Origin: Candidatus Liptonbacteria bacterium
GTDB lineage: Bacteria > Patescibacteriota > Minisyncoccia > UBA6257 > 2-01-FULL-56-20
Direction of reading: 5' to 3'
DNA length: 64,000 bases
Assembly (NCBI GenBank): GCA_016204385.1
Contig: JACQKW010000015.1
Location: 98,155 to 162,154 of the forward strand
Shown here in pieces: positions 8,218 to 63,401 of the stretch (position 1 is the stretch's first letter; each line of letters opens with the position of its first letter). The notes under the pieces were generated by a model. It did not search any database and had not been told where the DNA came from. It was given only the letters and a program-made list of their open reading frames with translations. The translations under genes were made by a program, and so were the position numbers.

Positions 8218-8218
8218 A

Positions 8219-8347
8219 CCTAATAAGCTTTGAGGCTTTCGGCAAGTTGCCTCATGAGCTGATTGAACGCATTCGACCTTAACTTCAAATTCTTCATGCT
8301 CCTCATACTATACACGTAGCACGTAGTAGATAGCGAAGCTTATTAGG
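8219..8347. repeat. Perfect 12-bp inverted repeat (CCTAATAAGCTT ... AAGCTTATTAGG) flanking a 105-bp intercistronic spacer
   Basis: Seen directly. The left arm is at 8219-8230 and abuts the start of 7168..8217. The right arm is at 8336-8347, just downstream of the stop of 8357..9262. Confidence 0.6.
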
Positions 8348-8356
8348 CGTGAGGAT

Positions 8357-41349: not shown

Positions 41350-41614
41350 CGTAGCAATATACTCCTAAATTCTTCATTACGCGGGTGGCCATGGGTGCGA
41401 TGAATGAGTTTTTTAGGAATAGGTGTGTTTTGTTTGTTTGACCGTTTTTCATCCCTAATGCTATTTCAATTCTCGGCACAAGTCAACCGACAGAACGGCT
41501 GTCCCTGTCTTAAAAAACCGAGGGCGGCCTCAATTGCGGAGAGCGCGATACGCCTCCCCGTGCCCTCGAGGGCATATTCCGATACAATATACTCACAGCG
41601 CATATTACGTTCCT

Positions 41615-43150
41615 ATGGCACGCACGGTTCTTCTTATCATATTGGACGGCTTTGGCATTGGCAGGGACGACCAGTCAAACCCGATCTATATGGCACAACC
41701 GGAAACGCTTCGCATGGTCCGCGAGGAATATCCGACCACGAGCCTTCACGCCTCGGGAATCAGCATTGGCCTTCCGTGGGGCGAGGTCGGCAACAGCGAG
41801 GTGGGGCATCTTACGATCGGCGCCGGCAAAGTGCTCTACCAGTACTACCCGAGGATCGTGATGTCCATCCGCGACCAAAGTTTCTTTGAAAACCCCGCGC
41901 TTGCGGGCGCCTTCTCGCATGCCCTCGCACACCGGTCCGCGGTGAACTTCCTGGGCCTCCTTTCGCGAGGCAACGTTCATGCGTCGCTTGAACATCTCCT
42001 TGCGCTTATCCGCATGGCGGAACAGCGCGGCGTGAACTATAAACTGCATCTTTTCGCAGACGGCAAGGATACCCCTCCTTCGTCTATCAGAAAATTCCTC
42101 CGCGAGATCCCCTTTGAGCGGCTCGCGACGCTCACGGGGCGATACTATGCCATGGATCGGGAAGAAAACTGGCAACTCACGAAACGCGCATACGATAACC
42201 TCGTGCACGGAGACGGGGAGCTTGTGCAAAACCCCGAAGAACTGGAGACGGCAATTAAGGCAAATGAGGCGCGCGGGAACAACGAAGAGTACCTTCCCCC
42301 TCTTTCATTCGGGAAAGAGAAGGTGATCGGCGATAATGAAGCGATACTATTCTTCAATTATCGCGAAGACAGCATTCGCCAGTTAAGCGAGAGCTTCATC
42401 CTCCCCAAGTTTGACAAATTTCCCGTAAAAAAGTTCCAAAATTCCTGGATCACGACGTTCTCCCAATACGAAGAGCGTTTCAACGTTCCCGTCGCATTCC
42501 CGGCGGAAACCATCGAACACACATTGGGAGAGGTGCTCGCGGCGAATGGGAAAACCCAGCTTCGCGTCGCAGAGACGTATAAGTACGCGCATGTCACCTA
42601 TTTTTTTAACAACTATCGCGAGGAGCCGTACCAAAACGAGTATCGCGTGCTTATCCCCTCGCTCACCTCCCCCCATATCGAGCAGCATCCCGAGATGATG
42701 GCGTCCGCTATCTCCGATCGGCTGATCCAGGCGCTCGAAAACCAGTCGTTCGATTTTATACTCGCAAATTACGCAAATCCCGACGCGATCGCCCATACGG
42801 GCGACTATGAGGCCTCGATAAAGGCCGTCAAAATCATCGACCATGAACTCGGCCGCGTACTCAAGGCGATCCATGGCACGCCCGCCGCGCTCGTGATCAC
42901 TTCAGACCACGGGAACATGGAGGAGGTCATCAATCCTTTTACGTCGCTCCCCGAGACACAGCACGATCCAAACCCGGTTCCCTTCCATCTCGTTGCTCCG
43001 GAGTATCGGGGGAAGAAGTTCGTCAATAATGCCAATCTTCGCGAACCCATCGGCATTCTTTCGGACGTTGCGCCTACCGTGCTTGCGCTCCTCGGCATTG
43101 CGCCTCCCGAGGATATGAACGGCAAGAACCTTCTTGCGCAACTGCTTTGA
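41615..43150 (+). CDS. gpmI: 2,3-bisphosphoglycerate-independent phosphoglycerate mutase
   Basis: Start at MARTVLLIILDGFGIG. It has the SEVGHLTIGAGK catalytic Ser motif and ends ...TVLALLGIAPPEDMNGKNL. About 511 aa. Confidence 0.9.
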   Translation: MARTVLLIILDGFGIGRDDQSNPIYMAQPETLRMVREEYPTTSLHASGISIGLPWGEVGNSEVGHLTIGAGKVLYQYYPRIVMSIRDQSFFENPALAGAFSHALAHRSAVNFLGLLSRGNVHASLEHLLALIRMAEQRGVNYKLHLFADGKDTPPSSIRKFLREIPFERLATLTGRYYAMDREENWQLTKRAYDNLVHGDGELVQNPEELETAIKANEARGNNEEYLPPLSFGKEKVIGDNEAILFFNYREDSIRQLSESFILPKFDKFPVKKFQNSWITTFSQYEERFNVPVAFPAETIEHTLGEVLAANGKTQLRVAETYKYAHVTYFFNNYREEPYQNEYRVLIPSLTSPHIEQHPEMMASAISDRLIQALENQSFDFILANYANPDAIAHTGDYEASIKAVKIIDHELGRVLKAIHGTPAALVITSDHGNMEEVINPFTSLPETQHDPNPVPFHLVAPEYRGKKFVNNANLREPIGILSDVAPTVLALLGIAPPEDMNGKNLLAQLL

Positions 43151-46460: not shown

Positions 46461-46544
46461 GCCCCCCTGGCGGAATCGGCAGACGCACAGGTTTCAGGAA
46501 CCTGTGGGAGTAATCCCGTAGAGGTTCAAATCCTCTGGGGGGCA
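46461..46544 (+). tRNA. tRNA-Leu (anticodon CAG), type II with a long variable arm. CCA is not encoded.
   Basis: Folded by hand. The acceptor pairs GCCCCCC/GGGGGGC. The D-stem is 3 bp. The anticodon stem is CAGGT/ACCTG with loop TTCAGGA. The variable arm is about 15 nt. The T-arm is AGAGG-TTCAAAT-CCTCT. The discriminator is A. Confidence 0.8.
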
Positions 46545-46595
46545 CGAATAAATAGTGGCGATTCGTACATTCGTAACACATTCGCTATTCGCAAC

Positions 46596-48386
46596 ATGAT
46601 GGCAAGAAAATTACCTTCACGCTCACGGCCGTATGGCCGCCCTTCGCGCGCATCAACAGAGAGGCGTCCATTTCCTCGTACGCATGCCAAACCCATGCCA
46701 GAAAAACCCCAAAAAGAGGGCGGCGAACCGCGCCTCCGCTTCGTGCCGCTCGGCGGACTCGAAGAAATAGGGCGGAACTGCTCCTTCTTCGAATATAAAA
46801 ACGAGATCGTCGTCGTTGACGTCGGCATCCAATTCCCCGAAGAGGAAACCCCGGGAATTGACTACATCATTCCGAACGTCGAGTATCTCGAAAAGAAGAA
46901 GGCGAACATCCAGGGCATCATCCTCACGCACGGCCACTACGACCATATCGCCGCAATTCACTATCTCATAGGAAAACTCGGCAACCCTCCCATTTATACC
47001 GCCGCATTCACCCGCGCGATGGTTGAAAAGCGGCACGAGGAATTCACGAACGCGCCCAAGCTCATGTTTCACACCGTGAAGGACGGTGAACGGGTAAAAA
47101 TTTCGGAACACTTCTCCGCTCGGTTTTTTGACATTGAGCACACCATTCCGGAGGCGCTCGGGTTCGCGCTCGAAACGCCGGTCGGAAAAATGGCGAGTTT
47201 CGGCGATTTCCGCCTCGACATCGGCAAAGACGGCACGCCCGAACATCTCGAAAAATTCGAAGCGCTGGGCCGCGAGGGCATCCTCTCCCTCTTCCTCGAC
47301 TCGACGGGCGCCGACATACGCGGAGCGTCGCTCTCCGAACGCACGATCGAAGAAAACATAGAGGCGCTTATGAAAGACGCGCCCGGCCGCGTCGTGATCG
47401 GCATTTTCTCCTCGCTTATTGACCGCATTTTGGAAATTGTAAAAATCGCCGACCGGCTCGGCCGCAAAGTGGCGGTAAACGGCCGCTCGATGAAAACCAA
47501 CCTCGACATCGCAAAAAATCTCGGCTATTTCAAAGACGAGAAAGGAGTGATGATTCCGCTCGAAGAAATCGGCAAACACAAAGACAACAAAATCGTGGTG
47601 CTCACGACCGGCGCCCAGGGAGAACAGAACGCGGGCCTCATGCGCATTGTGAACGGCGAACACCGGCTTATGAAACTGAAATCGACCGACACCGTCATAT
47701 TCTCCTCTTCGGTTATCCCCGGGAACGAGCGCAGCGTGCAAACCTTACAAGACAACATCGCACGGCAGGTACGCGAAGTGTACAACTCAAAACTTCTCGA
47801 CATCCACGTAAGCGGGCACGCAAACGGCGAGGACCTCAGGGTGGTGCTCTCTTTGGTAAAACCTAAATTCGTGGTGCCCGTCCACGGCTACTATTTTAAA
47901 CGGAAATCAGTCGTGAAAATTGCTGAGTCGGCCGGAATGAAAGGGGAACAGGTAATACTGATGGACAACGGCCAGGTTGCCGAGGTTGGCCCCGATCATT
48001 TCCGCGTGACGAATGAGACTGTGCCTGCGTCGTACGTGATGGTGGACGGCTTGGGGGTGGGCGACGTCGAAGAGGTGGTGCTCCGCGACCGGCGCGCACT
48101 CGCGCAGGAAGGCATGGTCGTCATCATCATGACCGTAGATCGTAAGAACGGGCGGCTCCTCAAGAGCCCCGACATCATCTCCCGCGGATTCATCCATATC
48201 AAGGAACACCACGAGGTGCTCGAGGAAATACGAAAGCGGCTCCGCGGTTTAATCTCACGCCTTCCTTCGTACCAACCCATCGAGAGCGACTATTTAAAAA
48301 CGCTCATCCGCGATCAGATAGGGCAATTCCTGTATACTAAGACAAGGCGGAGGCCCATGATACTGCCGGTAGTCATTGAAATTTAG
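46596..48386 (+). CDS. rnj: Ribonuclease J (metallo-beta-lactamase / beta-CASP)
   Basis: HGHYDH motif and the LDSTGA and HVSGHA beta-CASP motifs. About 560-596 aa. The true start may be internal. Confidence 0.85.
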   Translation: MMARKLPSRSRPYGRPSRASTERRPFPRTHAKPMPEKPQKEGGEPRLRFVPLGGLEEIGRNCSFFEYKNEIVVVDVGIQFPEEETPGIDYIIPNVEYLEKKKANIQGIILTHGHYDHIAAIHYLIGKLGNPPIYTAAFTRAMVEKRHEEFTNAPKLMFHTVKDGERVKISEHFSARFFDIEHTIPEALGFALETPVGKMASFGDFRLDIGKDGTPEHLEKFEALGREGILSLFLDSTGADIRGASLSERTIEENIEALMKDAPGRVVIGIFSSLIDRILEIVKIADRLGRKVAVNGRSMKTNLDIAKNLGYFKDEKGVMIPLEEIGKHKDNKIVVLTTGAQGEQNAGLMRIVNGEHRLMKLKSTDTVIFSSSVIPGNERSVQTLQDNIARQVREVYNSKLLDIHVSGHANGEDLRVVLSLVKPKFVVPVHGYYFKRKSVVKIAESAGMKGEQVILMDNGQVAEVGPDHFRVTNETVPASYVMVDGLGVGDVEEVVLRDRRALAQEGMVVIIMTVDRKNGRLLKSPDIISRGFIHIKEHHEVLEEIRKRLRGLISRLPSYQPIESDYLKTLIRDQIGQFLYTKTRRRPMILPVVIEI

Positions 48387-48809: not shown

Positions 48810-49799
48810 ATGGCTAAACCCTCTTTGGTTTCCGGAATTCAGCCAAGTGGCCGCTTGCATCTCGGCAACTATTTGGGCGCCTTGAAAAATTTCGTCGAGC
48901 TTCAAAACTCGGACAAGTACCAGTGTTATTTTTTTATTGCCGATCTCCACTCGCTCACCGAACCGTTCGATCCAAAAGAGAAATCGAAGCAGATTTTAGA
49001 ACTCGCGGCTGATTACCTCGCCGCGGGCTTAGATCAAAAAAAATCGACTATTTTTTTGCAGTCAGCAATTCCCTCGCACAGCGAGCTCGCCCGAATTCTG
49101 GAAAATCTCGCTCCTATGGGAGAACTGAATAGAATGACACAATTTAAGGAAAAGAGTAAAACACAACCGGGGAACGTAAATGCCGGGCTTTTCACCTACC
49201 CCACGCTCATGGCGGCGGACGTGCTTCTTTATAACGCAGAATTCGTACCTGTGGGCGATGACCAAGATCAACACCTTGAGCTCACGCGCACGCTCGCACG
49301 AAAGTTCAATGCGAAATTCGGCAAAACTTTCATCGAACCGCAACCACTCCATACCTCCGCCCCACGCGTGATGAGCTTAGGGAATCCCGAGAAGAAAATG
49401 TCGAAGTCGCAACCCGCGACTTGCCTCTTCCTCGACGATTCGCCGGAAGAGATAAAAGCGAAGGTAATGCGCGCAGTCACCGACTCGGGCTCGGAGGTTA
49501 CATACGACGAAAAAAGGAAACCAGCAGTAAGCAACCTGCTTATGATGTATGCGTCGCTTACCGGAGAACCTACTGTGAAAATCGAGAAAAAATTTGCCGA
49601 TAAAAACTATTCGCAATTCAAAACCTCGCTCGCCGAAACAATCGCCAATCACTTCGCTGATTACCGGAAGAAGAAACGAGAACTAACGACGAAGTCCTAC
49701 GTCCTAAAGACTATCCTGAAGTCCGGCTCCAAAAAAGCCGCAAAAATCGCGAATAAGAAAATTACCGAAGTGAAAGAAAAAATCGGCATCGCTATCTGA
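48810..49799 (+). CDS. trpS: Tryptophan--tRNA ligase
   Basis: SGIQPSGRLHLGNYLGA (HIGH-type), KMSKS and the GxDQ motif (VPVGDDQDQH). Confidence 0.9.
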   Translation: MAKPSLVSGIQPSGRLHLGNYLGALKNFVELQNSDKYQCYFFIADLHSLTEPFDPKEKSKQILELAADYLAAGLDQKKSTIFLQSAIPSHSELARILENLAPMGELNRMTQFKEKSKTQPGNVNAGLFTYPTLMAADVLLYNAEFVPVGDDQDQHLELTRTLARKFNAKFGKTFIEPQPLHTSAPRVMSLGNPEKKMSKSQPATCLFLDDSPEEIKAKVMRAVTDSGSEVTYDEKRKPAVSNLLMMYASLTGEPTVKIEKKFADKNYSQFKTSLAETIANHFADYRKKKRELTTKSYVLKTILKSGSKKAAKIANKKITEVKEKIGIAI

Positions 49800-49884: not shown

Positions 49885-50445
49885 ATGCTTGTGGTTCGGC
49901 GCGAAGACGAAGTGAAAGCTTTTCCTCACGCAGCGGGGTTTGTTACGGCGCTCACGGGCGAGAAAGACTTTGCCGGAGCGAATCTCGCGATCGTCCGGCT
50001 CTTTGGGCCCGATCTGCCGCACTATCACGAAGCGAGAACCGAATTCTACTACATCGCGGAGGGTCTCGGGACGCTTGTCGTGGGCCGCGAAGTCATCTCG
50101 GTGAAGCCCCGCACGGCCGTCATCGTCCCGCCGCGGACCGCCCACCACCTCATTCCCCATTCCGCGGTCAAGCTCCATGTTTTCTCCGTCCCGGCATGGA
50201 GCGAACACGATGAACACTTCATTGATCCCGACCACCCCATGCACGGCTACTCGCTTTTTCGGGAGAAAGTCGAGCTGGTGAACGAGCTCGTGAGGCGCGC
50301 AGATCTCGAACTTCCGCCAGGAATATCGGGGGAACGACTTGAAGAGTTCACTGCCCTGCGGATGAAGCTCGTCTCGGACGAGGGATGGGATACTATGAAC
50401 GTCGCCGAACTTCGGGAACTGCTTGTCCGCAAGGAGAATGCGTAG
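49885..50445 (+). CDS. Cupin-domain protein
   Basis: The HxH...E...H-type pattern (LPHYHEARTEFYYIAEG...PRTAHH). 186 aa. Confidence 0.55.
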   Translation: MLVVRREDEVKAFPHAAGFVTALTGEKDFAGANLAIVRLFGPDLPHYHEARTEFYYIAEGLGTLVVGREVISVKPRTAVIVPPRTAHHLIPHSAVKLHVFSVPAWSEHDEHFIDPDHPMHGYSLFREKVELVNELVRRADLELPPGISGERLEEFTALRMKLVSDEGWDTMNVAELRELLVRKENA

Positions 50446-50456
50446 GGAGAACCTTT

Positions 50457-50486
50457 CGGCGCGCGAGCAATCGCGCGCTTTTTTTG
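50457..50486 (+). terminator. Rho-independent terminator after the cupin gene
   Basis: GGCGCGCGAGCAATCGCGCGC followed by TTTTTTT. Confidence 0.6.
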
Positions 50487-50487
50487 C

Positions 50488-50516
50488 TTGACAAAATAAA
50501 AAATTCAGTTTAAGAT
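50488..50516 (+). promoter_or_regulatory. Sigma70-like promoter (TTGACA, 17 nt spacer, TAAGAT) for the IMPase-family gene
   Basis: TTGACAaaataaaaaattcagttTAAGAT, followed by an about 70-nt leader with an AAAGGAG Shine-Dalgarno. Confidence 0.45.
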
Positions 50517-50588
50517 ATCGCAGCGTCTTTAAGCACCTTGAATCCTGAATAACGAACCCTTTCTCGTCTCGACCCAAAAGGAGCGGCT

Positions 50589-51383
50589 ATGTTTGTATAT
50601 TTGGAAGCATTCCGTAGAATCGAGTCGGAAGTGTGTAAGGCGCTTCTCGCAAAACAGCGCCAGTCGAAGAAAGTCGGGGTTTCCGTACGAGATTTCGTTA
50701 CGGACGCCGACCATCTCTCGGACGACCTGATCCGTACAGCGCTCGCAAGGGAGTTTCCCGAAATTCCCTACTACTCTGAAGAAATGCCGATCGAGAGTGT
50801 GCGCTTAGGGAAGTGTTTCGTGGTGGACCCGATTGACGGCACGACGAACTTCTACTACGGGGATGACGGGAACTACTGGGGCGTATCAATCGCGCTCATC
50901 GAGGACGATTATCCTCTGGAGGGCGTCGTGATCCGCCCGGGAACCCATGAGTGCTGGGATGCCGTCTCGTTTGAGAGAACTATATGTTATTCCATGTCTC
51001 GGCCGGTCACGATCGACCTAAACCGCATGGGCGTGAGCAGCGAGACGGATCTCCAACACTCCCGCGTCTGGATCGACCCCGCGAAAGGAGACCTCAAGCT
51101 CTTCCGCGCGATGCGCGAGAAGCTCGAGGAGTGCACCACGCTCCCGCAGACCCGCATCGTCTGCACCATCTCTATGATGCAGATCCCGATGGGACGGATC
51201 GACGGCTATGTCCACCCCGGCCCCATGCCGGAGGACATCGCCGCCGCGATGCTCGTCGTCGAGGCCGCGGGTGGCCGCGTCACGAATCTCAAGGGGAAGC
51301 GCTACCGCGTCTTCTCCCGCGAGCCGATGGTGGCCACGAACGGAAAGATCCACGAACCGCTTCTCGAGCTTCTCAACCAGTAA
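50589..51383 (+). CDS. Inositol monophosphatase family protein (SuhB/IMPase)
   Basis: The VVDPIDGTTNF motif plus the WGVSIAL and EAAGG motifs. 264 aa. Confidence 0.8.
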   Translation: MFVYLEAFRRIESEVCKALLAKQRQSKKVGVSVRDFVTDADHLSDDLIRTALAREFPEIPYYSEEMPIESVRLGKCFVVDPIDGTTNFYYGDDGNYWGVSIALIEDDYPLEGVVIRPGTHECWDAVSFERTICYSMSRPVTIDLNRMGVSSETDLQHSRVWIDPAKGDLKLFRAMREKLEECTTLPQTRIVCTISMMQIPMGRIDGYVHPGPMPEDIAAAMLVVEAAGGRVTNLKGKRYRVFSREPMVATNGKIHEPLLELLNQ

Positions 51384-51407
51384 CAATCCCGAAAAAGGAG
51401 GTGTGTC

Positions 51408-52145
51408 TTGAAAATCGAAGCGCATCCAGTCCTCGGATGGCCGATCGTAACGGCAGCGAACTGCTTCGACGTGATCCGCTCTTTGGGCATCAAGCCGTGG
51501 CAGCAGGTCCGGGAACCCGAACCTCTCGATTCCTTCCTCTCTCACGCGACCGAGCCGGAGAAGGACGAGTACCGACGGTTCGGCCCCAAGAACTTCGTCG
51601 TCCGCTACCGGAATCCCCACACGGGTGAACCGTTCAACGGCTTCCGGTCCGTCTTCAAGCCCGCGGCCGTGGTTTTCGCCCTCCTCGACGAGCACGTTCC
51701 CGTGACCGCGGAGTGGAAGCACGGGAATGATCGGATCACGATCGTCCCCGTGGCCGGCGTCCCGGGCAAGAAGGAAGCGGAACTTCCCACGCTCGCCGAT
51801 CGCATGCGAGCCACCGCCATCCGTGAGTGGAACGAAGAGACCGGCACCGAGCTCTCATCGGTGACACCGCTCTCTCCCCCGAGCGGCATCTACTCCGCGG
51901 TCCGGCCTGCGGAGATCCAGTACTTCCCGTTCGTGGGCAGGGTCAAGGAACCGGTCGTGAAAGGACCGACTAAGTTCGACGCGAACGAGCACCTGAAGAT
52001 GGTTCTCTTCTCGCTCAATGAGTGGCTCGCGCTCATCGAAACCAACGAACTCTGGGATCAGCGTCCCGAGTTCGGGCTCGAAATGTGTGCGCGCGACGTG
52101 ACCTACGCCGCGCTCCGCGAGCTCGAGCGACTCAAGTTCGTCTAG
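51408..52145 (+). CDS. Nudix-like hydrolase (divergent Nudix box)
   Basis: GVPGKKE...REWNEETGTEL matches REUxEExGU but with an extended loop before RE. Confidence 0.4.
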   Translation: MKIEAHPVLGWPIVTAANCFDVIRSLGIKPWQQVREPEPLDSFLSHATEPEKDEYRRFGPKNFVVRYRNPHTGEPFNGFRSVFKPAAVVFALLDEHVPVTAEWKHGNDRITIVPVAGVPGKKEAELPTLADRMRATAIREWNEETGTELSSVTPLSPPSGIYSAVRPAEIQYFPFVGRVKEPVVKGPTKFDANEHLKMVLFSLNEWLALIETNELWDQRPEFGLEMCARDVTYAALRELERLKFV

Positions 52146-52158
52146 ACAGTACACCACA

Positions 52159-52190
52159 GGGGGCATCCGGATTCCGGATGCCCCATTTTT
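52159..52190. terminator. Bidirectional intrinsic terminator between the convergent Nudix-like gene and ileS
   Basis: GGGGGCATCCGGATTCCGGATGCCCC with T-runs on both flanks. Confidence 0.6.
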
Positions 52191-55100
52191 TATATTTTCT
52201 TCACCGCAACCCAGATCGGCACACCATCGAGTTTTGAATCAAGCTCCGCATCGAACTTATCGGTTTTTTTATAGTAGATTGTCCGCGCGCCCACTTCGTG
52301 AAGAAACGCTTGTTCGGCGCCCTGAAGAATTGATTGGACGTGGCTGGGCAGCGCGAAATAAATCTCTATTTTATCCCTTGGTTTAAGTCCCGCATCCTGC
52401 CGTAAGTCCTGCACCATGCGCACCATTTCCCGCACCATGCCTTCCCTTTTAAGCTCCAGCGTGATTGCGGTATCAAGCGCAACATCTTCTTTCGTGTTGC
52501 GATCAAATTTGATCTCTTTTACATTCACTTCATCCGCTAAAATTTCGAGTAGTTCCTTACGATTTGCCATTTGCCTGCCCGCTTCGCGTTGCGACCTGCC
52601 CGACTTGCCTTCGGCAACTCGAAGGCTGGCGGGAGCAAGGCGGGCGGGCCATTTGCTATTTGCCGCGACGCGAAGCGCCGCAAGCGGTTGCCTCACTTTT
52701 ATGCCTGCCTCGGCGCGTTTGGCGAGCGCCACGCTTGCGATGCGCCGCACCTCTTCCATCGCGGCGATAAGCGCTTTGCCATTTGCCCTTTGCCCTTTGC
52801 GAAGTATTGGCCAGTCCGCAAGGTGCGGAGAGAGCGCAGTTTTCACATTCCCCTTGAGTTCACCGTAAAGGAATTCCGCAAAAAAGGGCGTGAAAGGCGA
52901 AATGAGAAGCGTGAGCTCATGCAAGACATGGCCAAGCGTAACCGAGGCATCGTTAAAATCTTTTCCTTTATCCATATTCTTCCCGGCTCCCTGTCGTTCC
53001 GGCTGGAATCTTCGGCGCGAACGGCGGATATACCAGCGCGAGAGGTCATCAACAAGCGCCTCGAGCGCAAGCGCCGCGCCCCGAACGTCGTAGGATTCGA
53101 GCGAATCGGTCGTCTTTTTCTTGGTTTCTTCAAGCCGCGCAAGGATCCATTTGTCTAAGATATTGTTGGATGTTGGATGTTGGATGTTGGATGTTTTTGA
53201 TCTGACATCTAACTTCTCACGTCCTACATCGAACGCCTTACCATACGTCTTGTAAAACACGAGCGAGTTATAGAGAAGAAGATGAAATCGCCGATATGCC
53301 TTAAGGACATCGGCTTCTTCGAAATTCATCGGCTCGCCGGCGGGTTTTACGGTATAGAAATACCAGCGCACGGCGTCAACGCCGTATTTTTCCATCATGC
53401 GCCACGGGTCAACCACGTTCCCCTTCGACTTCGACATTTTCTTTCCGTGCATGTCGTGGAGAAGCCCGAGCGATATGACGTTCTTATACGGGCGCTCGCG
53501 GCCAAGTGCGGTTGCGACCGCAAGGAGCGTATAGAACCACCCCCTCGTCTGGTCCATCGCCTCAGTGATGTAGTCGGCCGGATACTCATTCGGTAGGGTT
53601 GGGCGTTGGATGTGAGAAGTTGGATGTTGCGCGAAGGGCCAGTGCGCTTGCGCAAACGGCATCGCGCCGGAATCGAACCACGCGTCGGCGAGTTCCGTGA
53701 CGCGGCGCATCTCGCCGCGGCATTTACCGCACGGAAACCCGCACTCGTCTATAAACGGGCGGTGCAGGTCTACGAGACCGGATTCATTTCTCGGCAATAC
53801 CTTCAGTTCCAACTTTCGCGCCTCGCCCACGCGCACAAAATCCTTGCCGGGCTCTCCGGCGTTCCCCTTCCTCAAAATCGTTTCTCGCTCGTCCCACCCT
53901 TCTCCCGCGTGGAAAAGCATCCAGATGGGATATTCGTGGCTCACGAGCAGGATGCGTTTCCCCTTGTGTGTCCGCTCGAGTTCAGAAAGCAGTTTCCACG
54001 CCCTCGCCCGGAGGTCACGGAGCGACTCGCCCCCCTCGGGACGCTTCTCAAAACGCATTTCGAGCGTCGGGTAGAGCGCGCCGTACTCCTCGCTGCGGCA
54101 ACCCGAAAGTTTGCCAAGGTGTATTTCATGCAAGCGCGGATCGAAAATAACTTTTTTGATTCCGAGCACGCCTGCCGCAATCTCCGCGGTCTCTTTCGTC
54201 CGGAGTATGTCCGATGAGATAAGCACTTCGATGCCCGCTTTTTTGAGTCGCTCGGCAGTTTGTTTCACTTGGTCGCGCCCGATGGTGGTGAGATGATACT
54301 GTTTCTGTCCGGAATCAATGAGTTTAAGGAGTTGGATCTCTGATTCGCCGTGCCGGAGAACCCAATACTCGTTTTTTGCTTTCCCGGCGCGCGTTCTCAA
54401 CTCCTCGACGCCGCCGATCACCTCGGTCGCCGCGCATGTGCCGCACCTCCATATGGGGAGCGGCGTGCCCCAATACCGCTCGCGCGAAAAATTCCAGTCC
54501 TTCACGTCGCGGAGCCACTCGCCGAAGCGCCCCTCTCTAAGATGCAGCGGCACCCAATTGATTTTTTTGTTTTCCTTGAGCAATTTCCCTCGGAGCTTGC
54601 TCATCGCGACGAACCACGATTTCCGCGCATAGTAGATGAGCGGCGTCCCGCACCGCCAGCAAAATGGGTACTCGTGTGTATACGGTTGGGTAGCAAAAAG
54701 CAAATCGCGCTTTTTGAGATATGAAAAAATTTTTTCTTCGGTTTTTTTATCCTTCACCGCAAGTCCGGAAAGCCCCAGAACATCCTTTGTGAACTTTCCT
54801 TCTTCGCTTACGGTATGGCGCTGCGGCAGATCGTTGTTAACGCCTAGTTGATAGTCATCTTCGCCGTACATTACCGCAGTGTGCACCACCCCCGTGCCTT
54901 CGTCGGTCGTCACGAAATCCGCGGCATAGATTTTGTGAGAGTTCTTATTGCGCAATGATTTCACATCAAAAAGCGGCTCGTAGGAAAGCCCAGCAAGGTC
55001 ACTGCCCTTGAAATCCTTGATGTTAGTGAACTTCCCAATAACCTTTCCAGCCATCACAATATCTGCCACGCTTTGATTTCCTTGCGGATGACGCGCTTCA

Positions 55101-56047
55101 ACGCCAAGGATTCTTTTGTCGGCGTCATCGGTTGCCGCAAAGATATACGTTTCTCCTTCCTTTAAGGGAAGGTTTGGGACGTCAATACTTTGAACCGTAA
55201 CGCTCATATATCGAATATTCCTCCCCACCGCGAGTGCAACATTCCCGGGCAGCGTCCATGGTGTGGTCGTCCAAGACAAGACATATGTATTCGGCGCGAT
55301 TCGCGCTTTGCGATTCGCGCTTTGCGATCTAAGCTTGAATTTCACATAGACCGACTGATCCGTTGCCTCCTCGTACCCTTGCGCCAGTTCGTGCGAGGAG
55401 AGCGCCGTGCCGCATCGGGTGCACCACGGCACCACTTTGTGCCCCTCATAGAGAAGTTTCTTCTTCCAAAACTCTTTGATGGTCCACCAGAGCGTTTCAA
55501 TATAGCTTGTCTCGTATGTCACATATGGATTCTTAAGGTCGAGCCAAAATCCCATCCGCTCGGTGAGCTTTTCCCACTCGTCTTTGTACTTCCAAACGGA
55601 TTCGCGGCATTTTTGGTTGAACTCCGCGATGCCATATTTTTCAATATCCTTCTTTGATGTGAGCCCCAGCGCCTTCTCCACCTCAATCTCCACCGGCAGG
55701 CCGTGCGTGTCCCAACCGCCCCTCCGCGGCACGAAAAAACCGCGCATGGTCTTGTAGCGAAGGATGATGTCCTTGAAGGAACGCGCGAGGACGTGATGGA
55801 TGCCGGGCCGCCCGTTCGCAGTCGGCGGCCCTTCAAAAAACACAAAGTGTTTTTTGCCCTGAGCCTGTCGAAGGGCGATCGTTTTTTCGAAAATCCGGTG
55901 CGTTTTCCAGAACTTCAAAATCTGTTCTTCTTCCTTAGGCAGGTGGAACGCTCCCGGAGAAGAAAACGCCGGGGCGTCTCCCGTAGGGATACCGTTATCT
56001 CTCATTTTAAAATTCCGCATGCGTGTGGTATCATACAACAGTTCCAA
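52190..56047 (-). CDS. ileS: Isoleucine--tRNA ligase (type 2-like) carrying an about 210-aa histidine-phosphatase (PGAM/RHG) insertion
   Basis: The HIGH-region analogue (GRPGIHHVLARS), the WNFSRERYWGTPLP editing/zinc region, KMSKS, and YPADYITEAMDQTRGWF. The insertion spans residues about 558-765 (nt about 53750..54380) and starts VLRHGESE with downstream SSDILRTKETA and LLVSHE motifs. The true start may be the internal Met (MRDNG or MRNFK). Confidence 0.9.
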   Translation of the reverse strand: MELLYDTTRMRNFKMRDNGIPTGDAPAFSSPGAFHLPKEEEQILKFWKTHRIFEKTIALRQAQGKKHFVFFEGPPTANGRPGIHHVLARSFKDIILRYKTMRGFFVPRRGGWDTHGLPVEIEVEKALGLTSKKDIEKYGIAEFNQKCRESVWKYKDEWEKLTERMGFWLDLKNPYVTYETSYIETLWWTIKEFWKKKLLYEGHKVVPWCTRCGTALSSHELAQGYEEATDQSVYVKFKLRSQSANRKARIAPNTYVLSWTTTPWTLPGNVALAVGRNIRYMSVTVQSIDVPNLPLKEGETYIFAATDDADKRILGVEARHPQGNQSVADIVMAGKVIGKFTNIKDFKGSDLAGLSYEPLFDVKSLRNKNSHKIYAADFVTTDEGTGVVHTAVMYGEDDYQLGVNNDLPQRHTVSEEGKFTKDVLGLSGLAVKDKKTEEKIFSYLKKRDLLFATQPYTHEYPFCWRCGTPLIYYARKSWFVAMSKLRGKLLKENKKINWVPLHLREGRFGEWLRDVKDWNFSRERYWGTPLPIWRCGTCAATEVIGGVEELRTRAGKAKNEYWVLRHGESEIQLLKLIDSGQKQYHLTTIGRDQVKQTAERLKKAGIEVLISSDILRTKETAEIAAGVLGIKKVIFDPRLHEIHLGKLSGCRSEEYGALYPTLEMRFEKRPEGGESLRDLRARAWKLLSELERTHKGKRILLVSHEYPIWMLFHAGEGWDERETILRKGNAGEPGKDFVRVGEARKLELKVLPRNESGLVDLHRPFIDECGFPCGKCRGEMRRVTELADAWFDSGAMPFAQAHWPFAQHPTSHIQRPTLPNEYPADYITEAMDQTRGWFYTLLAVATALGRERPYKNVISLGLLHDMHGKKMSKSKGNVVDPWRMMEKYGVDAVRWYFYTVKPAGEPMNFEEADVLKAYRRFHLLLYNSLVFYKTYGKAFDVGREKLDVRSKTSNIQHPTSNNILDKWILARLEETKKKTTDSLESYDVRGAALALEALVDDLSRWYIRRSRRRFQPERQGAGKNMDKGKDFNDASVTLGHVLHELTLLISPFTPFFAEFLYGELKGNVKTALSPHLADWPILRKGQRANGKALIAAMEEVRRIASVALAKRAEAGIKVRQPLAALRVAANSKWPARLAPASLRVAEGKSGRSQREAGRQMANRKELLEILADEVNVKEIKFDRNTKEDVALDTAITLELKREGMVREMVRMVQDLRQDAGLKPRDKIEIYFALPSHVQSILQGAEQAFLHEVGARTIYYKKTDKFDAELDSKLDGVPIWVAVKKI
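53165..53192. repeat. Tandem heptamer (GTTGGAT)x4 inside ileS coding sequence, encoding ...TSNIQHPTSNN
   Basis: Seen directly. The related GTTGGATGT also occurs twice at 53617-53640, encoding QHPTSHIQ. Confidence 0.7.
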
Positions 56048-56353: not shown

Positions 56354-58048
56354 TTACATCCGCTCGGGCGCTTTGATTCCCAATAATCCCAGTCCTTTTG
56401 ATAATACCTCCGCCGCGGCACGCAAGAGCGAAAGCCGCGCATTTTTCCTCGGCACATTTTCGTCTTTGAGTATCGGCGTGGATTCGTAATAACCGTTTAC
56501 GAGGTTCGCAAGCTTAAACAGATATTCCGCGAGACCGTTCGTCGCATACGTTTCCACCGCGCGTTCAAGCGCATACGGCAGCTCAAAAAGATGGCGGATG
56601 AGCGAAAGTTCTTCGTCAGTTTCGAGCGTCGAGAAATCTGGAGCGCCAATCTTTCCCGCTTTTCGCCCGATGCTTCGTATGCGCGCATGCGAGTATTGCA
56701 GATACGGCGCACTATTTCCCCTCACCGAGAGCATTTTTCCCCAGTCGAACACAATGTCCGTGCTCCTGTGTTCCTTAAGGTCGTTGTATTTGAGCGCCCC
56801 GATTCCCGTCATTTCCGCAATTTCCGCTTTTTCTTTCTCCGGAAGTTCCGGATTTTTCTCTTCGACAATCTTCCGCGCGAGCGACACCGCCTTATTGACA
56901 AGCTCATCGAGCGGAATGGTCTTCCCCTCGCGGGTCGAAAGCTTCTTCTTATCCTCCCCGAGCACAAGCCCGAACTTTACATGCGCGATTTTCTCCGCAT
57001 CCCATCCAAGGAGCTTCGCCGCCGCGGCAAGCTGCGAGAAGTGGAGTGCCTGCTGGTTCGCCACCACGTAGAGAATTTTCTCGGGCGCATATTTCTCAAG
57101 GCGCAACTTCAAAACCGCAAGCTCTCTCGTGAAATACACGCTTGCCTCGTCTGATTTCCTTATGAGTGCGGGCGGGAGGTGAAACTCATCAAGCGGAATA
57201 ATCACTGCTCCCTCGCTTTCTTTTGCAATCCCTTTCTTGAGCAACTCGGCGACGATCGCAGGGAGGTCTTTTTCGTAATCGCTCTCGCCGCTCACCACAT
57301 CGAACGTTACGCCTAACTTTTCATACGTTTCCCCGAATTCGCGAACCGATTCCCGTCGGAACCATTCCCATAATTTCCGATTTTCGGCGTCGCCATGTTC
57401 AAGCTTTCTGAATTCCTCCTGGCCGCGGCGCAGAAGCGCGGGGTCTTTTTCCTCCTCGCCGTGAAAACGCACATAGAGCAGAACGAGCGCGTCAATCGGC
57501 GCTTCTTTCACTTCCTTTTCTTTCCCCCACATTTTGTACGCCGCGATGAGCTTGCCGAACTGCGTGCCCCAATCGCCAAGGTAGTTCCAGCGGATCACGG
57601 TATATCCCAAAAATTCATGGATATTCGCGAGCGCGTCGCCGATGATCGTCGAGCGCAAATGCCCCACGTGCATCGGCTTTGCGATGTTCGGGGAAGAATA
57701 TTCGACGATCACTTTCTTTCCCCGCCCGACATCCTTCGCGCCAAATTTTTTATCGGTACGGAAATCACGAAACGCGTCGCGCTGCGCCTGCGCGGATACC
57801 CAGAAATTTATGAACCCGGGCGGGGCAACCTCGATCTTTTCGAAAAAATCCCGTGGGACGCGCGATTTGATCGCGTGCATAAGCTCCTCCGCAAGCGCAA
57901 CCGGCTCTTTTCCCTCGCGCTTCGCGCGAACCATCGCGAGGTTCGTTGAATAATGACCCTGCGCTTCTTGCTCAGGAATAGTAACGCTAACCGAGATATC
58001 CCCAGGTGAGACCTGTTCGAGCAGCTGTGTAATGATTTTTTTAAGCAT
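56354..58048 (-). CDS. argS: Arginine--tRNA ligase
   Basis: SPNIAKPMHVGHLRSTIIGDA (HIGH-type) and the C-terminal DALR anticodon-binding region. 564 aa. Confidence 0.9.
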   Translation of the reverse strand: MLKKIITQLLEQVSPGDISVSVTIPEQEAQGHYSTNLAMVRAKREGKEPVALAEELMHAIKSRVPRDFFEKIEVAPPGFINFWVSAQAQRDAFRDFRTDKKFGAKDVGRGKKVIVEYSSPNIAKPMHVGHLRSTIIGDALANIHEFLGYTVIRWNYLGDWGTQFGKLIAAYKMWGKEKEVKEAPIDALVLLYVRFHGEEEKDPALLRRGQEEFRKLEHGDAENRKLWEWFRRESVREFGETYEKLGVTFDVVSGESDYEKDLPAIVAELLKKGIAKESEGAVIIPLDEFHLPPALIRKSDEASVYFTRELAVLKLRLEKYAPEKILYVVANQQALHFSQLAAAAKLLGWDAEKIAHVKFGLVLGEDKKKLSTREGKTIPLDELVNKAVSLARKIVEEKNPELPEKEKAEIAEMTGIGALKYNDLKEHRSTDIVFDWGKMLSVRGNSAPYLQYSHARIRSIGRKAGKIGAPDFSTLETDEELSLIRHLFELPYALERAVETYATNGLAEYLFKLANLVNGYYESTPILKDENVPRKNARLSLLRAAAEVLSKGLGLLGIKAPERM

Positions 58049-58323: not shown

Positions 58324-58764
58324 ATGAAGGTGCTCTCGGAGAACCGCCGCGCGAAATTCGACTATGAAACGCTCGATACCTACGAAGCAGGCATCGAGCT
58401 TTTGGGAACCGAAGTAAAAAGCGCAAAACTTGGGCGGATAAATTTATCGGGCGGACATGCCATTGTGCGCAAAGATGGGGTGTGGCTCGTGGGGATAGAA
58501 ATTCCCGCCTATCAGCCGAAGAACGCGCCCCAGGATTTCGACGCAAAACGCACGCGCCGGCTCCTGCTCCATGCATCTGAAATAAAAAATCTTATCGGCA
58601 AGCTTCACGAAAAGGGGCTCTCGCTTATTCCCCTTCGCGCATATCTCAAAAACAGTTTGGTCAAGATCGAACTTGGTCTCGCGAGGAGCCGAAAGAAGCA
58701 CGACAAGCGCGAACTCCTCGCGCGCCGCGCCCACGAACGCGAAATAAGGGAACGGGAACGCTAA
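58324..58764 (+). CDS. smpB: SsrA-binding protein SmpB
   Basis: FDYETLDTYEAGIELLGTEVKS...NLIGKLHEKGLSLIPL and a basic C-terminal tail. 146 aa. Confidence 0.9.
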   Translation: MKVLSENRRAKFDYETLDTYEAGIELLGTEVKSAKLGRINLSGGHAIVRKDGVWLVGIEIPAYQPKNAPQDFDAKRTRRLLLHASEIKNLIGKLHEKGLSLIPLRAYLKNSLVKIELGLARSRKKHDKRELLARRAHEREIRERER

Positions 58765-60788: not shown

Positions 60789-63401
60789 CTATAGGTCATA
60801 CTTCTGAATCCTTAACCTTAGAGCATCCTTACCACCTTCAAGATGCACAAGTAGTAGCTTGTTAGTCTCCAAATGATCTACTGCACCACTACTCTTGATT
60901 TCGCCCTTATCTGCGCTTGCATCAAGAACATGACTCAATTCTGCATCTGCACCCACAGCGATGTTCGGATTGTGAGTTGTGAAAATGAACTGGCGGTCCT
61001 CCTTGCTCCTTCGCAACGTCTTCACTACATGCCCGTATATGGATTGAGTGTCGAGGGGTTCCTCGGGTTGATCGATAACCAACGGCCCACGCCCTTCGAT
61101 CATAGCCAGTGAGATGATAACTGTGCCTTTCTGACCTGTAGATAGCTCACGAAGCGTCTTCTCCCGTCCTGGTTCGACAACGTAAGTGACCTCTGGTAGG
61201 TCCGGAAGCGATACACACTCGAGTTCATATAGCTCATCAAGGGGCTTACCCGAGAAGGATTCGACCAGCCGCTGTGAAACGCTCTGCGTTACCCCAGCCT
61301 GTTTCGCAAGGGAATTAATGTCGCCCTTCCTCACGAGTGCTAGAAGTTGCCGTGGTGAGAGTACCCTAGCCGCCTGTCGAATATCAGGCTCTCTTACATA
61401 GCCGCTCCGCGAAAGCGTTCGGATAGTCTCCTCAAACTCGGATCGGTCTCCGGACAAAACAACCTTTATCCGAACAAGGCCGCCCAGACCAACTTCGAAC
61501 TCCTCTGCCTTTTTGTTTCGCTTCTCCCATCTCCTTTTCCTGACCAGATCCAGCCGATCGAGCAGTCTGCCCCGCTGCGAGTCTAGAGTTCGTTCTTCCT
61601 CCCTTACCTTCGTTAGTTCTGCCCCGTGTTTCCTTAGAGTCTCGACTCGCTTTCCGAGGCTGCGGAAACGGGCATTTACCTTCCGAACATCTTTCTGACC
61701 CAGTTCTTCCAATGCGCTATCATGCTCATCCTTCTTAGCGTTGAACAGCGGCGTCAGCTCATCTGAGATCTTCTTAATGTTCTTTCGCAGCCCCTCGACC
61801 GATCCCAACAAGTCGCGCTTCGCAGAGGCGATGGCTTTGACAACAGCATCGTGGACGCCCTCCAGGCCCTTTATGATCTTCTTGTTTGGCGCATCCGCTG
61901 GTGCTGCTATTTCGACGTGTGTTAGATCAACATCGTCCAAAGCGTTTTCCATAGCTGAGCCGAGCTCGCCGAGTGCTTCATCCAGCGAGGCGACATATTC
62001 CTGTTCAGCCTCCCAGTTTGGAAATTCCTTCAGGACGGGATTCTTCAACTGTCGTTCAAGACTCTTATATTGAGTACGGGTCGCTTCCTTCCCGGTTTCT
62101 GGGTTGTCCAACTCGCTCTGAAGGTGAGATATCCGATCCTGGCATTTCACGAACTCCTTTGCATTCGTGCGAAGTTCATTCAGGATTCTGTTTTCCTCAG
62201 TCTGCTCCTCTTCAAGGGTTACTCTGCGGTCGATTAGGTCTAGCTGAGCGAGTGGATTTGAGGCAATCTGCACGAACTCCCCCTGACTGAAGAATGCCGG
62301 CGATGTCTCAAGCTGCGCCACACTGCCGGTGCCATCACGAACCTCTCTATCTGTTGCCCACGGCTGGACCTCTCTTTTAATGGTTTTCACTTCACCATCA
62401 CCATCAAGATACTCCACAACAACTGATCCGCCGTGGCCCACCAGCGAGGCAATCTTGCCTTCGTGATCCTCTCGGATATCCCTAAACTCTGACACATCAT
62501 CAAAACAGTACCGGAGCAGTTCGATTACCGTCGATTTCCCTGTCCCCTTTCCACCAACCAAGCAGTTGAGGCTCTCGTGGAAGCCAAACGACAATCCTCC
62601 AAAGAAACCCTGGTCGACTGAAAGCCGCATTATTCGAGGGTGGGTAGGTTCGCGGTAGTTCCAAGGAAATCGGACTCGCACTTCGTGATCCAGCAGAGCG
62701 TGGCGAACACCCCTAAGTGATGGCTTATCCATCTTGAGATATGTCACCCGTCGCCCGATTTCGGCAAGACTATGAGAATCCGATGAATGCGTGCAAGGCT
62801 TCGCGGGATAGGTAGGAGCGAGCTTGCCGTTGCAAAATTTGTCGATATCGGATTCCTTGGTGTGCTCGAGCGCAGCGAGTTGGGGGAGAGGCACGAGGGC
62901 AATCTTGTATTGGCCTTTCGCCTTCAACAACCCGTTGTTCTCATTGGCATGAGCGGCGATAGCGAGGCCTCCCGCCTCGTGAATTTTCTTTATGACGATT
63001 TCAGCATGATCATCTGAGATCGCCTCTTCTTTGCCTTGTGTGTCTCGTTGGATGCCGACGCTAATCAGAAGATCCGCGATCTTCGAAGTATCGTGGTTCA
63101 CCTCGAACAGTGCCAAGATGTGTCCTTCTGGAGTAGTAATCTCGACACCCGGGAGGACCGTGACAGTGCTCTTCTCGCTGGCGGAGCGCATGGATTCGAT
63201 CCACTCGACCGAGTTATGGTCCGTAATCCCGAGGATGTCGATGCCCTTCTTCGCCGCTTCCTGAATCAGCTTCTCTGGGGTGGCATCTTTGCCGGAGTGG
63301 TCTTTCGAGGCGGGTGTATGCGTGTGCAGGTCGGCTTTGTAGAACCGAGCGCCTTCAGAATCAGCCATGGTGCCTGAATAATACTCCTTCAGACAGGCCA
63401 C
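60789..63401 (-). CDS. PHP-domain phosphoesterase fused to an SMC/Rad50-like ABC ATPase with a long coiled coil. Candidate single-gene defence protein with a Ppl-like architecture.
   Basis: 870 aa. The N-terminal PHP motifs are DLHTHTPAS, GITDHN, VEIT, GHIL, AAHA and SSDSHS. Walker A is GGKGTGKST. About 400 aa of charged coiled coil follow. The C-terminal ABC signature is LSTGQK, Walker B is LVIDQPEEPLD and the H-loop is FIFTTHNPN. Confidence 0.8.
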   Translation of the reverse strand: MACLKEYYSGTMADSEGARFYKADLHTHTPASKDHSGKDATPEKLIQEAAKKGIDILGITDHNSVEWIESMRSASEKSTVTVLPGVEITTPEGHILALFEVNHDTSKIADLLISVGIQRDTQGKEEAISDDHAEIVIKKIHEAGGLAIAAHANENNGLLKAKGQYKIALVPLPQLAALEHTKESDIDKFCNGKLAPTYPAKPCTHSSDSHSLAEIGRRVTYLKMDKPSLRGVRHALLDHEVRVRFPWNYREPTHPRIMRLSVDQGFFGGLSFGFHESLNCLVGGKGTGKSTVIELLRYCFDDVSEFRDIREDHEGKIASLVGHGGSVVVEYLDGDGEVKTIKREVQPWATDREVRDGTGSVAQLETSPAFFSQGEFVQIASNPLAQLDLIDRRVTLEEEQTEENRILNELRTNAKEFVKCQDRISHLQSELDNPETGKEATRTQYKSLERQLKNPVLKEFPNWEAEQEYVASLDEALGELGSAMENALDDVDLTHVEIAAPADAPNKKIIKGLEGVHDAVVKAIASAKRDLLGSVEGLRKNIKKISDELTPLFNAKKDEHDSALEELGQKDVRKVNARFRSLGKRVETLRKHGAELTKVREEERTLDSQRGRLLDRLDLVRKRRWEKRNKKAEEFEVGLGGLVRIKVVLSGDRSEFEETIRTLSRSGYVREPDIRQAARVLSPRQLLALVRKGDINSLAKQAGVTQSVSQRLVESFSGKPLDELYELECVSLPDLPEVTYVVEPGREKTLRELSTGQKGTVIISLAMIEGRGPLVIDQPEEPLDTQSIYGHVVKTLRRSKEDRQFIFTTHNPNIAVGADAELSHVLDASADKGEIKSSGAVDHLETNKLLLVHLEGGKDALRLRIQKYDL

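Follow-up and report, generated by a model that had tools for sequence, protein, structure and literature searches.

Here we describe an ileS gene that carries a complete histidine phosphatase domain inside the catalytic body of the isoleucyl-tRNA synthetase (IleRS) which it encodes. The gene lies at positions 52190..56005 on the minus strand of a 64,000-nucleotide stretch of contig JACQKW010000015.1 from Candidatus Liptonbacteria bacterium (hereafter the window), and the phosphatase domain occupies positions 53807..54391 of the same strand. The product is an aminoacyl-tRNA synthetase (aaRS) with a new kind of nested catalytic domain, and automated pipelines already register this type of architecture. 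We consider it probable that the protein is a bifunctional IleRS-phosphomonoesterase, one polypeptide with two enzymes whose physical coupling has been selected.

The ileS open reading frame (ORF) is a single uninterrupted minus-strand frame, 52190..56047, that stays open up to a TTG codon at 56047 and comprises 1285 aa when counted from this codon; all residue numbers below follow this count. The corresponding database protein (P0212) starts at M15, the ATG at 56005, and is identical to the NCBI entry MBI4095170.1, 'class I tRNA ligase family protein [Candidatus Liptonbacteria bacterium]'. In the NCBIfam profile search the ORF scored 815 bits against the ileS equivalog TIGR00392 (cut-off 621.4), and its closest named relatives in that collection are of the MupA/MupB type. 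The order of the Pfam domains is tRNA-synt_1, His_Phos_1, tRNA-synt_1/1g, Anticodon_1 and DUF5915; the last one (PF19302, aa 1175-1284), with no zinc-binding domain at the C-terminus, represents the C-terminal architecture (ARD3/DUF5915) of type-2 IleRS (IleRS2). The class I signature motif has the non-canonical form GIHH (G-X-H-H; aa 82-85, 55793..55804, minus strand), and a G/A-X-H-H motif is present in 118 of the 119 full-length homologues that we aligned. G-X-H-H has been shown experimentally to be a functional IleRS2 variant conferring mupirocin hyper-resistance (PMC10485003). As these enzymes of the candidate phyla radiation (CPR) possess the swapped form instead of H-X-G-H, CPR IleRSs with G/A-X-H-H are predicted to belong to the mupirocin hyper-resistant type. 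The KMSKS motif (aa 870-874, 53426..53440, minus strand) is found in 115 of the 119 homologues. Two motifs of the connective peptide 1 (CP1) editing domain, WTTTPWTLPGN and GTGVVHTAVMYGEDDY, are readable in the translation, and we take them to correspond to the Thr-rich and GTG-VH...D editing motifs of E. coli IleRS. With the signature motif, KMSKS, the CP1 editing domain, the anticodon-binding domain and DUF5915 all in place, the host is, as read from its sequence, an intact and complete IleRS2.

The phosphatase interrupts the zinc knuckle of the connective peptide 3 (CP3) subdomain. The N-terminal half of the knuckle, WRCGTC (aa 533-538, 54434..54451, minus strand), contributes C535 and C538, which align with C461/C464 of the Thermus thermophilus (Tth) IleRS, and the C-terminal half, CGKC (aa 773-776, 53720..53731, minus strand), contributes C773 and C776, aligned with C502/C504; all four cysteines are present in 119/119 homologues. 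To delimit the insert, aa 553-747 were removed and the joined segments 440-552 and 748-900 were searched against the PDB sequences, which yielded a colinear alignment to T. thermophilus IleRS 1ILE (E 9e-87). In the insert-less IleRSs of two related loci (L067/L069) only ~40 residues separate the two cysteine pairs, and the guest therefore corresponds to aa 553-747, at the tip of the CP3 knuckle. The alignment to type-2 enzymes also settles the question raised in an earlier note on this DNA of whether the region might be an ordinary connective-peptide subdomain: this is ruled out, the Tth enzyme also having only ~40 aa at this site. The note had placed the feature at 53750-54380 and estimated its length at 210 aa; the span was essentially right, and the insert proper is 53807-54391, or ~195 aa. 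The zinc motif that hosts the insert (site A) belongs to the CP3 subdomain (PMC7191050). In the yeast IleRS the linker between CP2 and CP3 lines the pocket that binds the CCA end of the tRNA (PMC7955072); the window equivalent of this linker, VKDWNFSRERYWG, stops 6 residues before the zinc knuckle.

The Pfam profile PF00300 (His_Phos_1) matches aa 562-719 with E 4.3e-34 and 118-122 bits (cut-off 21.7). The motifs on which the idea of an IleRS with a histidine phosphatase between the halves of its zinc knuckle had originally been based, i.e., VLRHGESE (aa 563-570, 54338-54361), SSDILRTKETA (aa 611-621, 54185-54217) and LLVSHE (aa 700-705, 53933-53950) flanked by WRCGTC and CGKC, are all found in the one uninterrupted ORF, and that idea is borne out by both profile searches. 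Alignment with PDB sequences places the RHG motif (R565, the nucleophile H566 and G567; 54347..54355), the second phosphate-binding arginine R616 (54200..54202, within SSDILRTKETA), the putative general acid E641 (54125..54127, in RLHEIHLG) and the second catalytic histidine H704 (53936..53938, in LLVSHEYPIWM), all on the minus strand, on the catalytic residues of the phosphatase PhoE (1H2E), E641 falling on the Glu of the PhoE sequence RLREIHLG. R565, H566, R616 and H704 are invariant among the 119 homologues, as are G590, S612, E674 and R682; position 641 is E in 116 and D in 3, and position 567 is G in 115 and A in 4. The catalytic motifs are thus intact, their residues being invariant or nearly so in the set.

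The mean pairwise identity among the homologues is 0.50 in the insert, 0.62-0.72 in the catalytic core and 0.48 in the C-terminal domain, so that the insert evolves faster than the core and at a rate like that of the C-terminal domain. In eight close pairs the dN/dS ratio of the insert lay at 0.05-0.13 and that of the host at 0.05-0.14, these values being approximate since dS is near saturation. Structure prediction, which the earlier note had recommended for confirming the fold, gave a confident model: AlphaFold2 on aa 520-795 with a 34-sequence alignment yielded a predicted local distance difference test score (pLDDT) of 90 and a predicted template modelling score (pTM) of 0.87, and the insert adopts in it the alpha/beta/alpha fold of the phosphoglycerate mutase (PGAM) type. 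The top Foldseek matches in the PDB are phosphatases of this superfamily, namely the PspA phosphoserine phosphatase (4IJ5/4IJ6), mycobacterial GpgP (4PZ9/4QIH/6S2Q) and PhoE (1H2E), with probability 1.0 and a TM score of 0.74 normalised to the target for 4IJ5, 4QIH and 1H2E; the cofactor-dependent phosphoglycerate mutases (dPGMs) rank lower. The designation 'PGAM-like' given in the note holds for the superfamily, on the grounds of both the profile and the fold, and is to be read as phosphatase-type and not as mutase. The isoelectric point of the insert is basic (median 9.2); considered as a hint of RNA binding, it is uninformative because the host domains are equally basic. Judged from these alignments and the model, the guest is a complete and strongly constrained histidine phosphatase domain of the catalytically competent type, small and PhoE/PspA/GpgP/CobC-like, and it is very likely that an active phosphatase resides here inside a functional IleRS.

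The same insert with the same flanks is encoded by 65 species-representative Patescibacteria genomes, including the complete genome AP024682; this count derives from a pattern scan of one genome per GTDB species and, being pattern-based, is a lower bound. All 65 loci are of the Parcubacteria/Paceibacteria type (Lipton-, Jorgensen-, Giovannoni-, Yanofsky-, Niyogi-, Sung- and Kaiserbacteria), and most of them contain one uninterrupted ORF of 1140-1275 aa. PF00300 is also present in all 120 best full-length homologues of the window IleRS (51-61% identity), which are named in their sources only 'isoleucyl-tRNA synthetase' or 'class I tRNA ligase family protein'. When the insert alone was searched against 1.84 billion cluster representatives, 116 of the 150 best matches also contained IleRS sequence. 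The nested-phosphatase IleRS is therefore the norm in a large Parcubacteria clade, across which it is inherited, and the suggestion that it is unusual does not hold in the sense of a one-off. A chimeric assembly, against which the note had warned, is ruled out by the identical junctions in the 65 independent genomes together with the absence of a GC break, the GC content being continuous across the insert. Since the pairing of IleRS and phosphatase recurs in hundreds of related species, it looks functional.

The remaining 34 of the 150 best representatives are free of IleRS; most have a length of 187-219 aa and share ~35-41% identity with the insert, and the others are fragments and a few longer proteins. 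The genomic context was looked up for eight free-standing homologues, one of which lies on too short a contig, so that seven loci were informative. In five of these seven a phosphatase gene for 187-193 aa stands directly beside an insert-less type-2 ileS, and argS is located upstream. The distance between the phosphatase gene and ileS is 4 nt for P0336 (L067/L068) and 18 nt for P0171 (L077), and the two genes overlap by 10 nt for P0150 (L069/L070); smpB is divergent from argS in the P0336 and P0150 loci. In the P0189 locus (L073) the phosphatase gene is likewise directly beside the insert-less ileS, and in that of P0165 (L072) ileS is convergent. Sister lineages thus have the phosphatase gene between argS and ileS. 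The two other homologues are found away from ileS, one followed by a small ORF and then recO (L078) and one in L079, which is discussed below. In the fused form, argS directly precedes ileS in at least 36 of the 65 loci, and the window, with argS (arginyl-tRNA synthetase; 56354..58048, minus strand; Pfam tRNA-synt_1d, DALR_1 and Arg_tRNA_synt_N) directly upstream of ileS, has the same smpB / argS / ileS arrangement as the sister lineages. The free-standing proteins match the insert end to end, from MNKYFILRHG (KNEYWVLRHG in the insert) to KGELRRLN and the stop codon (VGEARKLELK in the insert), so that the nested domain has its counterpart in an entire adjacent gene, an equivalence that is neutral as to the direction of the event (insertion or excision). 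In a neighbour-joining (NJ) tree the phosphatase domains group by insertion site and the Parcubacteria site-A clade nests among the free-standing proteins; this tree is rough, with long branches and without support values, and gives a weak indication only.

In IleRSs of the Gracilibacteria, Peregrinibacteria and Peribacteria type, histidine phosphatase domains (His_Phos) occupy other positions, site A being used there as well. Site B lies just after WFDSGSMPYA and site C between the catalytic body and the anticodon-binding domain. Among the 120 best homologues of one such protein (P0202), 107 carry at least one His_Phos copy, 15 carry two and 2 carry three, and the fragment P0071 carries four. 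In P0399, which lacks His_Phos, site B is filled by a tandem pair of HAD phosphatases whose DFDGV and DNDGV motifs are intact; in other proteins this site holds a Ser_hydrolase domain (P0389) or a DUF559 endonuclease-like domain (P0351), and it can be followed by GNAT (P0338) or by a P-loop kinase of the AAA_18/AAA_33 type (P0400). Site C can hold an AAA_33/Zeta_toxin-like kinase (P0416), and in some relatives (P0400, P0416) His_Phos and an AAA_33/AAA_18 kinase are combined in the same loop. In none of the ~250 proteins listed is the phosphatase fused to an end; each fusion is internal and falls in one of three loops that surround the second half of the catalytic fold. One relative is named in IMG as 'isoleucyl-tRNA synthetase/phosphohistidine phosphatase SixA/...GNAT'. 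Enzyme genes also adjoin ileS in insert-less relatives: in L075 a gene for a YbaK/ProX-type tRNA_edit deacylase (8109-8585) starts 1 nt after ileS, and in L074 a Ser_hydrolase-like gene (8332-8841), of the same family as the domain nested in P0389, abuts ileS, which is also overlapped by rpiB. At the ileS of a Verrucomicrobia control locus (L076) neither a Ser_hydrolase-like nor a tRNA_edit gene was found.

More generally, the Gracilibacteria/Peregrinibacteria-type IleRS is a hot spot of nested domains (P0338, P0351, P0389, P0399, P0400, P0416, P0210 and P0422), with guests including GNAT, AAA_33/AAA_18/Zeta-toxin-like kinases, HAD, serine hydrolase, DUF559/REase-like domains and the IS200-type Y1 transposase, and these proteins reach ~1860 aa. 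Short peptides recur in frame at the same places. The sequence (L/R)xSPDLAKRD follows immediately after CxxC of the CP3 knuckle in five proteins, on the N-side in P0219, P0302 and P0320 and on the C-side in P0224 and P0288, and NPHPNPLPEGEG occurs three times in P0399 (aa 971, 1110 and 1229), at the edges of sites B and C and once more. These peptides resemble small inserted repeat elements such as the Rickettsia palindromic elements; DNA coding for SPDLAKRD was not present in the loci that we fetched. The window ileS itself contains a heptanucleotide tandem repeat (ACATCCA)x4 at 53167-53194 (minus strand), encoding ...SNIQHPTSNN..., and ~420 nt upstream in the gene a degenerate copy at 53600-53613 (minus strand), encoding ...QHPTSHIQ...; the window contains 4 matches to the repeat pattern, where 0.22 would be expected. 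The repeat and its degenerate copy lie in loops C and B, respectively, which host phosphatase domains in the Gracilibacteria-type enzymes. A 7-nt unit is odd in an essential gene because a change by one unit would shift the frame.

If the chemistry is that of the family, H566 would attack a phosphomonoester to give a phospho-histidine intermediate, R565, R616 and H704 would hold the phosphate, and E641 would serve as the general acid. The domain would have originated from the small free-standing phosphatase gene located immediately upstream of ileS in the argS-X-ileS operon of the sister lineages. From the use of three or more loops, always internal, and from the replacement by HAD domains in one case we infer that selection acts to keep a phosphatase activity physically close to the catalytic core of IleRS. 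We lean, with some reserve, towards a functional coupling of this kind, because the operon already provides co-expression and an easy fusion of overlapping genes would be N-terminal. Candidate substrates would be a 3'/2'-phosphate or a pyrophosphate on the tRNA acceptor end, which block charging, or a nucleotide of the aminoacylation cycle, and not a glycolytic intermediate; we propose such a substrate tentatively and hold it to be doubtful. The roles put forward in the note, namely action on a nucleotide, on Ap4A or on a tRNA end, or regulation, are likewise candidates only. It is favoured by the position of CP3 directly after the CCA-pocket linker and by the relatives with combinations of kinase and phosphatase and with neighbours directed at aminoacyl-tRNA (YbaK-type, GNAT, esterase). 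The toxSAS toxins are known to pyrophosphorylate the tRNA CCA end and thus to block aminoacylation (10.1101/2021.04.30.441581, PMC11559606). In a bolder version, which we find unlikely, the CPR IleRS would be a platform tethering enzymes for the chemistry of the tRNA acceptor end or of aminoacyl-nucleotides, with histidine and HAD phosphatases, P-loop kinases, GNAT acetyltransferases, serine hydrolases and YbaK-type deacylases as its modules; the phosphatase would heal or detoxify the tRNA 3' end, removing a 3'-phosphate, a cyclic phosphate or a toxin-added pyrophosphate before charging.

Several points weigh against the coupled IleRS-phosphomonoesterase. The insert falls below the equivalog cut-off of every named phosphatase (PspA, 56.7 vs 350; CobC, 61.7 vs 162.9; SixA, 27 vs 74.5; PRK13462, 29 vs 226), and hence the profiles assign no substrate. 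Every structural neighbour of the insert is a small-molecule phosphatase, and we know of no histidine phosphatase that acts on RNA ends. The coupling offers no explanation of why IleRS alone would need a phosphatase partner. In L079 the free-standing homologue P0161 overlaps a gene for a ROK sugar kinase near glmS, which points to sugar-phosphate metabolism, and the presence of DUF559 endonuclease and Y1_Tnp domains in the relatives suggests that the loops may be permissive landing sites. Some of these points would suit a housekeeping metabolite phosphatase (for sugar phosphate, phosphoserine or a glycerate-type compound) that is independent of its host and whose chemistry is unrelated to aminoacylation. 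In that case a gene next to ileS in the operon would have entered a loop that tolerates it, and all that the fusion brought to a very small genome would be co-expression, stability or economy. CPR bacteria have small genomes in which gene fusions are frequent, the nearest neighbours in both sequence and structure (PhoE, PspA, GpgP and CobC) have small-molecule substrates, and the overlap of rpiB with ileS in L074 tells in the same direction. Such an explanation is nevertheless rather unlikely in our view: it leaves the operon as a sufficient means of co-expression, it does not account for fusions that are internal at three loops where the simplest one would be N-terminal, and it sits poorly with an unrelated HAD phosphatase at the same loop in one IleRS and with the 116 of 150 closest relatives residing inside IleRS.

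The recurrent peptides and the heptanucleotide repeat at the same loops, together with the DUF559/REase-like, IS200-type Y1, GNAT, kinase and hydrolase domains in the ileS of relatives, could also be read as traces of selfish insertion, the loops being mere landing pads and the cargo becoming fixed as its imprecise deletion from an essential gene is lethal. We find this very improbable for the window domain, as its catalytic residues are invariant in 119 homologues whose inserts are only ~50% identical, its dN/dS (~0.1) equals that of the host, its inheritance looks vertical, clade-wide and, in the NJ tree, divided into site-specific clades, and a Pfam scan of the window IleRS detected neither an intein (Hint) nor a homing-endonuclease domain. 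A dPGM moonlighting inside IleRS and supplying the mutase step of glycolysis would agree with the weak similarity to dPGM_arch (NF038349, 80.6 bits) and GpmB (64 bits) and with the dPGM structures among the lower Foldseek matches. All the dPGM equivalog cut-offs are, however, missed by a wide margin (NF038349, 80-84 vs 225; PRK03482 (GpmB), 64 vs 261; PRK01295, 38.8 vs 316). A full-length dPGM has ~230-250 aa and a C-terminal tail that closes the active site, whereas our domain of ~195 aa has no such tail and its chain returns straight to the zinc knuckle. The window also encodes a separate cofactor-independent phosphoglycerate mutase (iPGM_N + Metalloenzyme; 41534-43150, plus strand), and the organism therefore has a glycolytic mutase of its own. 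On the missed cut-offs and this gene the dPGM identity was rejected, and little credence is left to it. Inserted domains in aaRSs often lose their catalytic function, so that a dead structural, tRNA-binding or regulatory module had to be considered along with an assembly artefact; with the full catalytic set invariant on the one hand, and with junctions shared by 65 independent assemblies, a closed genome among them, and no GC step at the insert on the other, the probability of either is close to negligible.

The host resembles the known type-2 bacterial IleRSs, such as those of T. thermophilus (1ILE/1JZQ) and Priestia megaterium (IleRS2, 8C8U), in family, domain order, CP3 zinc ligands, DUF5915 and the IleRS2-type signature motif; it differs in having a 195-aa phosphatase where those structures have ~37 residues between the cysteine pairs, and in the G-X-H-H variant. 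The guest shares fold, size and catalytic residues with the branch-1 phosphatases PhoE (1H2E/1EBB), PspA (4IJ5), Rv2419c (4PZ9/4QIH; the glucosyl-3-phosphoglycerate phosphatase, GpgP) and CobC (2P9Z), but is only 22-29% identical to them, has SHEYPIWM instead of SHG/THG after the second histidine and is embedded, not free-standing. Its best NCBIfam match is the bifunctional RNase H/acid phosphatase PRK07238 (Mycobacterium Rv2228c type), in which a CobC/PhoE-like phosphatase is likewise covalently joined to a nucleic-acid enzyme; the fusion to RNase H is terminal there, in contrast to the insertion into an aaRS described here, and the score (82-86 bits) does not come near the cut-off of 326. 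A precedent for an IleRS with an extra catalytic domain is the family NF040702 (ileS_w_GNAT), and some of the GNAT-bearing relatives also contain His_Phos; the window IleRS, however, scores 314.8 bits against a cut-off of 1999 and has no GNAT match in Pfam. The Gracilibacteria-type IleRSs with a P-loop kinase plus His_Phos, and the one with HAD in the same loop, recall the end-healing polynucleotide kinase-phosphatases (Pnkp) of the T4 type, a likeness that is speculation on function only. The known Pnkp phosphatases are of the HAD or metallophosphoesterase type; the window IleRS has neither of these modules nor a P-loop kinase, and its phosphatase fold is different.

In the 348-nt spacer between argS and ileS no leader RNA or T-box was found with Rfam even at E <= 1, and promoter-like matches were not above the shuffled expectation. 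Between ileS and the convergent Nudix-like gene there is a GC-rich hairpin with T/A tracts (52160..52184; 11-bp stem, 9 GC pairs), likely a bidirectional terminator. The neighbourhood contains further genes for translation and RNA, i.e., tRNA-Leu(CAG) at 46461-46545, RNase J at 46596-48386, TrpRS at 48810-49799 and SmpB at 58324-58764, all on the plus strand. Just downstream of ileS lies a plus-strand stretch of high GC content (49885-52145; 0.58-0.64 vs ~0.53 nearby) whose genes code for a cupin protein, for a member of the inositol-monophosphatase family (E 1e-33) and for a Nudix-like protein with a weak match (E 5e-4, under the cut-off), so that more genes of the phosphatase/pyrophosphatase type adjoin ileS; Nudix genes are also found near argS/ileS in L067, L069 and L077. 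Farther away, 60792-63401 (minus strand) encodes an 870-aa protein with an N-terminal PHP domain and SMC/AAA_23/AAA_21 (AbiEii-like) ATPase regions, which may be an ATPase-nuclease of the defence or DNA-repair type. The region ~1-37700 is a long run of mostly minus-strand ORFs, several of which look like glycosyltransferases or have N-termini like those of NAD-dependent sugar epimerases/dehydratases (e.g. 4029-5135, 30235-31161, 34564-35526 and 36651-37664); from a reading of the translations it is probably a cell-surface polysaccharide cluster.

In a full-text literature search we found no description of an IleRS with a histidine phosphatase and no paper reporting an apparently active phosphatase embedded in the catalytic body of an aaRS. 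The word 'phosphatase' does not occur in a 2026 survey of ~10^5 IleRS domain architectures, nor do 'CPR' or 'Patescibacteria', and it is absent from a 2026 survey of domain insertions as well. The architecture also bears on annotation, as many such proteins are entered at NCBI simply as 'class I tRNA ligase family protein'.

The aaRSs are among the best-studied enzymes, and new biology has repeatedly come to light through their accessory domains (editing, tRNA-binding, signalling). Here the phosphatase is met beside ileS in the operon, inside IleRS at three different loops, in several copies per protein and, in one case, replaced by a non-homologous phosphatase; such a pattern is a classic comparative-genomic signature of a functional link. 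If the role of the domain is only metabolic, the gene would still be a clean natural case in which an entire adjacent gene has moved into a loop within an essential enzyme. If the link to tRNA ends or to the aminoacylation cycle is true, translation would gain a new auxiliary activity, in a radiation to which a large share of bacterial diversity belongs, and, should the phosphatase in fact heal tRNA 3' ends, a previously unknown translation quality control or anti-toxin defence would be built into an aaRS.

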